Of a DNA stretch of 64,000 nt, positions 8,079 to 8,253 are shown piece by piece. Within the stretch, counting starts at the first letter, position 1. Each line of letters opens with the position of its first letter. The notes under the pieces were generated by a model. That model was not told where the DNA came from and ran no database searches. It saw nothing but the letters and a program-made list of their open reading frames with translations. The position numbers were made by a program, and so were the translations under genes. This DNA is from Escherichia coli. Lineage in GTDB: Bacteria > Pseudomonadota > Gammaproteobacteria > Enterobacterales > Enterobacteriaceae. The stretch lies in the NCBI RefSeq assembly GCF_003334405.1, contig NZ_QOWM01000002.1; one strand, given 5' to 3'.

Positions 8079-8091
8079 TCCTCTATTTTAA

Positions 8092-8122
8092 GACGGCATA
8101 ATACTTTTTTATGCCGTTTAAT
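8092..8122 (+). terminator. Rho-independent terminator after yggN
   Basis: hairpin acggcata / tatgccgt with T-rich loop, followed by ttaattcttcgtttt. Confidence 0.6.
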
Positions 8123-8132
8123 TCTTCGTTTT

Positions 8133-8148
8133 GTTACCTGCCTCTAAC
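8133..8148 (+). promoter_or_regulatory. Putative CRP site of ansB promoter
   Basis: tgttacctgcctctaa is a weak TGTGA-N6-TCACA match, about 50 bp upstream of the FNR box, consistent with the published two-site ansB architecture. Confidence 0.35.
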
Positions 8149-8183
8149 TTTGTAGATCTCCAAAATATATTCACGTTGTAAAT

Positions 8184-8197
8184 TGTTTAACGTCAAA
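8184..8197 (+). promoter_or_regulatory. FNR box of ansB promoter
   Basis: ttgtttaacgtcaa matches TTGAT-N4-ATCAA at the expected distance upstream of the ansB start; ansB is a known FNR/CRP co-activated gene. Confidence 0.6.
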
Positions 8198-8253
8198 TTT
8201 CCCATACAGAGCTAAGGGATAATGCGTAGCGTTCACGTAACTGGAGGAATGAA

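Follow-up and report, generated by a model that had tools for sequence, protein, structure and literature searches.

The stretch of DNA analysed here, referred to as the window, is 64,000 nt long and carries the gene order mutY–trmB–yggL–yggN–ansB–yggM–hemW according to the RefSeq annotation. The genes flanking the promoter under study are named by RefSeq as yggN (DUF2884) upstream and ansB (L-asparaginase 2) downstream, which confirms the identity of the gene 3′ of yggN as given in an earlier note made from the sequence. The product of ansB is the asparaginase used as a leukaemia drug. The yggN gene ends at 8078, and the yggN–ansB intergenic region covers 175 bp (8079..8253), without any difference from E. 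coli K-12 MG1655, in which a window position w corresponds to position 3108982 − w of NC_000913.3. The flanking coding sequence does differ from MG1655, which marks the window as DNA of another E. coli strain. A segment of 601 bases around the ansB promoter is found with 95–100% identity in 5426 of 5426 complete E. coli genomes. This segment also has six matches on plasmid records; the one on NZ_AP022088.1 (142694..142928) covers the coding part only (bases 368–601 of the query, window 8267..8500), and the promoter is absent from it. In E. coli MDK6L1 (NZ_CP081324.1, L028), a 768-bp IS1 has inserted between the yggN stop codon and the yggN terminator, at window 8083..8090, with the target duplication CTATTTTA; as the element sits upstream of the CRP block described below, the ansB promoter of this strain is intact. 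Just 3′ of ansB, yggM is an intact 335-aa open reading frame in the window (9417..10424), and in strain FDAARGOS_1291 (L001, 4018..5025) the annotation describes it as a pseudogene interrupted by a stop codon. The features of the region are, in order:

8091..8119, plus strand: intrinsic terminator of yggN, an 11-bp stem followed by a T-rich tail
8129..8150, unstranded: weak CRP site of 22 bp with the core TGTTA-N6-TCTAA at 8132..8147, from sequence, spacing and conservation, its assignment to CRP being taken from the literature
8183..8196, unstranded: FNR box TTGTTTAACGTCAA, centre 8189.5, about −41.5 (class II position), from its unique match, matrix score and conservation
8218..8223, plus strand: −10 hexamer GATAAT, read directly
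8229..8231, plus strand: putative transcription start, placed by its distance of 6–8 nt from the −10 hexamer
8243..8247, plus strand: Shine–Dalgarno sequence GGAGG, read directly
8254..9300, plus strand: ansB coding sequence, periplasmic L-asparaginase II of 348 aa, from the list of open reading frames and the RefSeq annotation of identical DNA

Upstream, the ansB control region is bounded by the yggN terminator, which lies outside the promoter. The terminator RNA folds with −14.3 kcal/mol (z = −7.1 compared to shuffled sequences), its stem is preserved through compensatory changes in Citrobacter and Salmonella, and the CRP block starts 10 bp 3′ of the terminator. Within the intergenic region, GATAAT is the sole good core promoter element. 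The ATAAT of this hexamer is unchanged in 18 of 18 enteric sequences, and CTGGAG at the ribosome-binding site is likewise unchanged in the 18 species. No −35 hexamer was found 16–18 bp upstream of GATAAT, where the hexamers are almost nothing like TTGACA, and a consensus scan of 7900..8500 revealed no complete sigma-70 promoter. The lack of a −35 element is the state expected of an activator-dependent promoter, with an activator site in the place of the −35 hexamer. The FNR centre at 8189.5 lies 28.5 bp upstream of the first base of GATAAT. A start at 8230 or 8231 would give −40.5 to −41.5 for the centre of the FNR box and −90.5 to −91.5 for that of the CRP site; with the G at 8231 as the putative start, the two centres would be at about −41.5 and about −91.5, respectively. 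Neither ansB nor the expected start coordinates occur in the supplementary data of Kim et al. 2012. Two further candidates in the vicinity were rejected. A terminator-like hairpin on the minus strand (8285..8272, inside the ansB coding sequence) is attributed to chance, with 0.9 such matches expected in the scanned region. An Rfam scan of 7300..9500 returned SorX at 9263..9334, covering the ansB stop codon and the DNA just 3′ of it, at 18.8 bits compared to a gathering threshold of 46.6 (E = 0.22), and this sub-threshold match is most likely chance.

The sequence TTGTTTAACGTCAA occurs once in the 64,000-nt window, at 8183..8196. Compared to the consensus TTGAT-N4-ATCAA, it has two mismatches and retains 8 of 10 core positions. 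FNR-like sites with at most two mismatches were found 45 times in the window, with 33.6 expected, and mismatch counting therefore places the box at chance level. The earlier note had called the box near-consensus and located it at 8184..8197; the inverted repeat is real, although its true position is one base to the left and the label was generous for a box with two mismatches that is a chance match by count. The same note had proposed scoring with an FNR matrix as a check. We scored the window with a symmetrised matrix from 63 ChIP-bound sites (Myers et al. 2013 Table S6, PMC3688515), which gave 12.65 bits for TTGTTTAACGTCAA and 11.95–21.55 bits for the training sites, and ranked the box second among the ~64,000 positions of the window. 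A first-order Markov model predicts 1.6 sites of such a score per random window; thus, a hit inside the given 175-bp intergenic region is a ~0.4% event.

A separate observation concerns galP, a known CRP-activated gene encoded on the minus strand (ATG near 20698). The metK–galP intergenic region holds a perfect CRP core, TGTGAAGCAAATCACA (20762..20777), and ~75 bp further upstream of galP is the best FNR-matrix match of the window, TTGAGTTATATCAT at 20837..20850, with 14.1 bits. This site is absent from the predicted-site and ChIP lists of Myers et al. 2013 (PMC3688515), in which galP is ~2-fold differentially expressed between aerobic and anaerobic conditions (Table S12).

Upstream of the FNR box in the ansB promoter, positions 8132..8147 hold the CRP-like core TGTTAcctgccTCTAA. 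The core is centred on 8139.5 (about −91.5), and exactly 50 bp separate this point from the centre of the FNR box (8189.5). It matches TGTGA-N6-TCACA at 7 of 10 positions, with three mismatches. In 5.5 kb, 22 CRP-like sites with at most three mismatches were found and 18.2 were expected, about one per 250 bp. At this chance frequency the quality of the motif gives the CRP site no weight, so its support comes from spacing, conservation and the literature; our own assessment used mismatch counts, spacing and conservation only. In tandem promoters the upstream CRP site is centred at about −90.5 to −93.5, on a defined face of the helix, and the CRP-like centre, 50 or 51 bp upstream of the FNR centre, lies on that face. 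No better CRP-like site was detected by a scan of the intergenic region. A second CRP-like 16-mer, TGTAAATTGTTTAACG, also with three mismatches, shares bases with the FNR box and is centred 69 nt 5′ of the ATG; it was ruled out because it is at chance level, off-register and conserved in only four Escherichia sequences. Of the two features that the earlier note had described, the weaker CRP-like site ~50 bp upstream is thus borne out, and the −41.5-type distance of the FNR box agrees with a putative start near 8231, placed by the position of the −10 hexamer.

To collect relatives, we used a degenerate DNA pattern for the ansB coding motif NITILATGGTIAGGGD, which retrieved 24 loci from a collection with one genome per species. 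The pattern was placed inside ansB to keep the query from biasing the promoter comparison. Eighteen Escherichia, Citrobacter and Salmonella sequences, including the window, could be aligned upstream of ansB, and six Escherichia lineages are represented (the window, E. albertii, E. whittamii, a divergent 'E. coli' and two further species). In these six lineages, all 16 columns of the CRP core and all 14 columns of the FNR box are invariant, compared to the spacer between the boxes, where 10 of 32 columns vary. Taken together, the boxes are invariant at 30/30 columns and the rest of the region at 115/145 (Fisher p = 0.003). Among the complete E. coli genomes, the 30-mer around the FNR box is present exactly in 5180 of 5426 (95.5%) and the 30-mer around the CRP block in 5406 of 5426 (99.6%), and each is also present on two plasmid records. 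The CRP and FNR centres are 50 bp apart in E. coli, E. albertii, E. whittamii and Salmonella, whereas two cryptic Escherichia lineages (L007 and L025) have a distance of 51 bp. The latter carry a 1-bp insertion right after the CRP block (CTCTAATTTTT), at about window 8148, and both of their boxes are identical. The sequences, spacing, statistics and conservation of the ansB boxes are our own observations.

Jennings and Beacham (J Bacteriol 1990; Mol Microbiol 1993) and Scott, Busby and Beacham (Mol Microbiol 1995) reportedly placed the centres of the ansB activator sites at −41.5 (FNR) and −91.5 (CRP), and in the 1993 study site-directed mutation of either box is said to have abolished activation. 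The segment 8129..8231 is, base for base, the E. coli ansB promoter of that literature, and very probably a tandem-activator ('class III') sigma-70 promoter for FNR, which senses oxygen, and CRP, which senses sugar starvation. Activation of this promoter by FNR and CRP has been known since 1990–1995, and the present reading is a rediscovery. The dependence of ansB on the two regulators is taken from papers, which describe co-dependent activation by CRP and FNR and cite Jennings & Beacham 1990 and 1993 (PMC3688515, PMC3998974, PMC5843318, PMC8256714); by its title, the cited 1993 paper is a molecular analysis of the ansB promoter. The proposal of co-activation by anaerobiosis and cAMP therefore agrees with published co-dependence, and our phylogenetic footprinting picks the same two boxes. 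In Myers et al. 2013, ansB is FNR-activated in microarray and RNA-seq data, i.e. in two of three transcriptome sets. It is also differentially expressed between aerobic and anaerobic conditions in that study, with a value of 0.107 that we read as anaerobic induction from the marker genes, the direction being our deduction for a sheet named 'Anaero_over_Aero' (PMC3688515; Tables S8, S10 and S12 hold both results). The value groups with those of the hyb hydrogenase genes (0.05–0.45) and is opposite to acnB and lpdA. In Shigella flexneri, ansB is induced anaerobically. RegulonDB includes ansB among the known targets of CRP.

Other genome-scale data are discordant. The FNR ChIP-seq of Myers et al. 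2013, made in anaerobic glucose medium, gave no peak upstream of ansB; the authors classified the gene as 'regulated but no peak' and explained the missing peak by growth conditions in which CRP is inactive; the ansB box is also absent from their genome-wide predicted FNR sites with ln(p) ≤ −10.75 (PMC3688515). In the genomic SELEX of Shimada et al. 2011, ansB is listed as a known CRP target that was missed. Neither FNR nor CRP occupancy is seen at ansB in these genome-scale data. The missing peak, prediction and SELEX recovery fit two weak and mutually dependent sites that were assayed while CRP was inactive. It is these discordant data that leave small probabilities for other explanations, which bear on the proximal box, on the upstream block and on both motifs together.

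Across the 18 species, the proximal box and the upstream block behave differently. The 22-bp CRP block, with the consensus TTTTG-TA-C---CTCTAA, shows the strongest conservation of any upstream block in Escherichia, Citrobacter and Salmonella (14/22 columns invariant compared to 50/153 elsewhere between yggN and ansB, Fisher p = 0.008), and it makes up the main conservation island along with the ribosome-binding site and the ATAAT of the −10 hexamer. Only 5 of 14 columns are invariant in the proximal box, which reads TTGGAnnnnGTCACA in Citrobacter and TCGTATGTCrTCACA in Salmonella, both with a CRP-type TCACA arm. This arm is present in 10 of 10 Citrobacter genomes and in both Salmonella enterica subspecies, and the upstream CRP block and the distance between the boxes are retained in all of these genera. 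Among the sampled species the FNR-type box (TTG...TCAA) is confined to the genus Escherichia, in all six lineages, and no FNR-matrix site of at least 8 bits was found upstream of ansB in any non-Escherichia sequence compared. Judged from these alignments, the balance tilts slightly towards a lineage-specific swap of the proximal activator, from CRP to FNR or the reverse, by way of one or two base changes. If true, this would extend the published contrast between E. coli and Salmonella to Citrobacter. Salmonella enterica ansB reportedly relies on a tandem pair of CRP sites, without FNR (Jennings et al. 1993; Scott et al. 1995). In a transcriptome table for Salmonella, crp is the only regulator under which ansB appears, in agreement with both the sequence difference in the proximal box and the two reported CRP sites.

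Further afield, better CRP-like cores are present: TGTGATCnnGATCGAA lies upstream of the ansB homologues of Aggregatibacter (L005, L019 and L022), and AGAGAGCTAGATCACA upstream of that of Enterobacteriaceae bacterium B14 (L018), centred 73 nt before the start codon; each has two mismatches. No FNR-like site of at least 8 bits was found in the DNA upstream of ansB in Aggregatibacter and B14. Among ansB genes, control by CRP may be the more widely distributed condition.

The Salmonella arrangement suggests another possible use of the proximal box in E. coli, namely that it is bound by CRP, so that two tandem CRP dimers occupy the promoter and anaerobic control is indirect. The half-sites of the two regulators are essentially one base apart (GTGA/TCAC for CRP and TTGA/TCAA for FNR), the homologous box of Citrobacter and Salmonella ends in TCACA and does not reach 8 bits with the FNR matrix, and the ansB promoter has no FNR ChIP-seq peak in glucose medium. 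However, all Escherichia lineages carry FNR-type bases on both arms (TTG...TCAA), with 12.65 bits by the FNR matrix, and as a CRP core the proximal 16-mer ATTGTTTAACGTCAAA matches at fewer than 7 of 10 positions and is absent from the scan at up to three mismatches. The fnr dependence of ansB in two transcriptome sets and the assignment of the site to FNR in the literature also argue against CRP at this position, and we consider such an arrangement in E. coli very unlikely.

A different question is whether the conserved upstream block, TTTTGtTAyC...CTCTAA, is bound by a factor other than CRP or serves as a DNA-shape or UP-like element, with CRP acting elsewhere or indirectly. Each of its half-sites (TGTTA and TCTAA) is without one of two G:C pairs, the block is equally imperfect in the 18 species with no drift to or from the consensus, and it was not recovered by CRP SELEX. 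Its symmetry and 6-bp spacer nevertheless suit CRP, its distance of 50 bp puts its centre on the right face of the helix relative to the proximal activator, and the intergenic region has no CRP-like site that is better. As ansB is moreover a curated CRP target that is co-activated by CRP, we regard a role of the block unrelated to CRP as highly improbable. It is just as hard to believe that both motifs are chance matches and the FNR and CRP dependence indirect: by mismatch count both do occur at chance frequency, and neither an FNR ChIP-seq peak nor CRP SELEX recovery was obtained, but the FNR box is second in 64 kb by matrix and has class II spacing to a −10 hexamer lacking a −35 partner, the two centres are exactly 50 bp apart, both boxes are conserved selectively compared to the flanking intergenic DNA, and the cited 1993 paper is titled as a molecular analysis of this very promoter.

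The reading that we regard as very probable, FNR at the proximal box and CRP at the upstream block, suggests how the ansB promoter works. With GATAAT and no −35 element, RNA polymerase would need help at this promoter. Under anaerobiosis, a [4Fe-4S] FNR dimer would bind TTGTTTAACGTCAA near −41.5 and substitute for the −35 element, making class II contacts with sigma region 4 and the alpha subunit of RNA polymerase. When cAMP is high, a CRP dimer would bind TGTTA-N6-TCTAA near −91.5, five helical turns upstream, from where it could contact the C-terminal domain of the alpha subunit. These polymerase contacts belong to the general knowledge of CRP and FNR activation, or are our extrapolation from it. 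Both sites being weak, full expression of ansB would require FNR and CRP together. Asparaginase II would then be made when oxygen and preferred sugars are both absent, and asparagine could feed an aspartate-to-fumarate route. Both sites are weak by motif statistics and are identifiable only through position, spacing and conservation. The case shows that a real, experimentally established regulatory architecture is recoverable from a tool-free reading of the sequence, and it can serve as a calibration for similar calls at uncharacterised promoters.

Finally, we compared the promoter with known systems. Class II FNR-dependent promoters with a site at −41.5 include nirB, narG, dmsA and yfiD, and synthetic promoters with CRP and FNR in tandem are grouped with them here. 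The ansB promoter shares with this group a 14-bp inverted repeat in the place of the −35 element, but its box is weaker, with two deviations and a score under the genome-wide prediction cutoff, and its second activator is an upstream CRP rather than NarL/NarP or a second FNR. Half-site variants similar to those of the ansB box are present in the ChIP-bound sites of yfiD (TTGTTTTACATCAA) and yhaB (TTGATTAACGTCAA) (PMC3688515 Table S6). The Salmonella ansB promoter resembles that of E. coli in gene order, −10 hexamer, upstream CRP block (TTTTGTTATCCATCTCTAA) and spacing of the boxes, and differs from it in the proximal box, which has the TCACA arm and no FNR-matrix score of at least 8 bits. The E. 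coli K-12 ansB promoter is identical DNA, with FNR near −41.5, CRP near −91.5 and the co-dependence, and there is no substantive difference between it and the promoter in the window. The ansB promoter is a classical model of how two different global regulators, bound in tandem, activate transcription synergistically.
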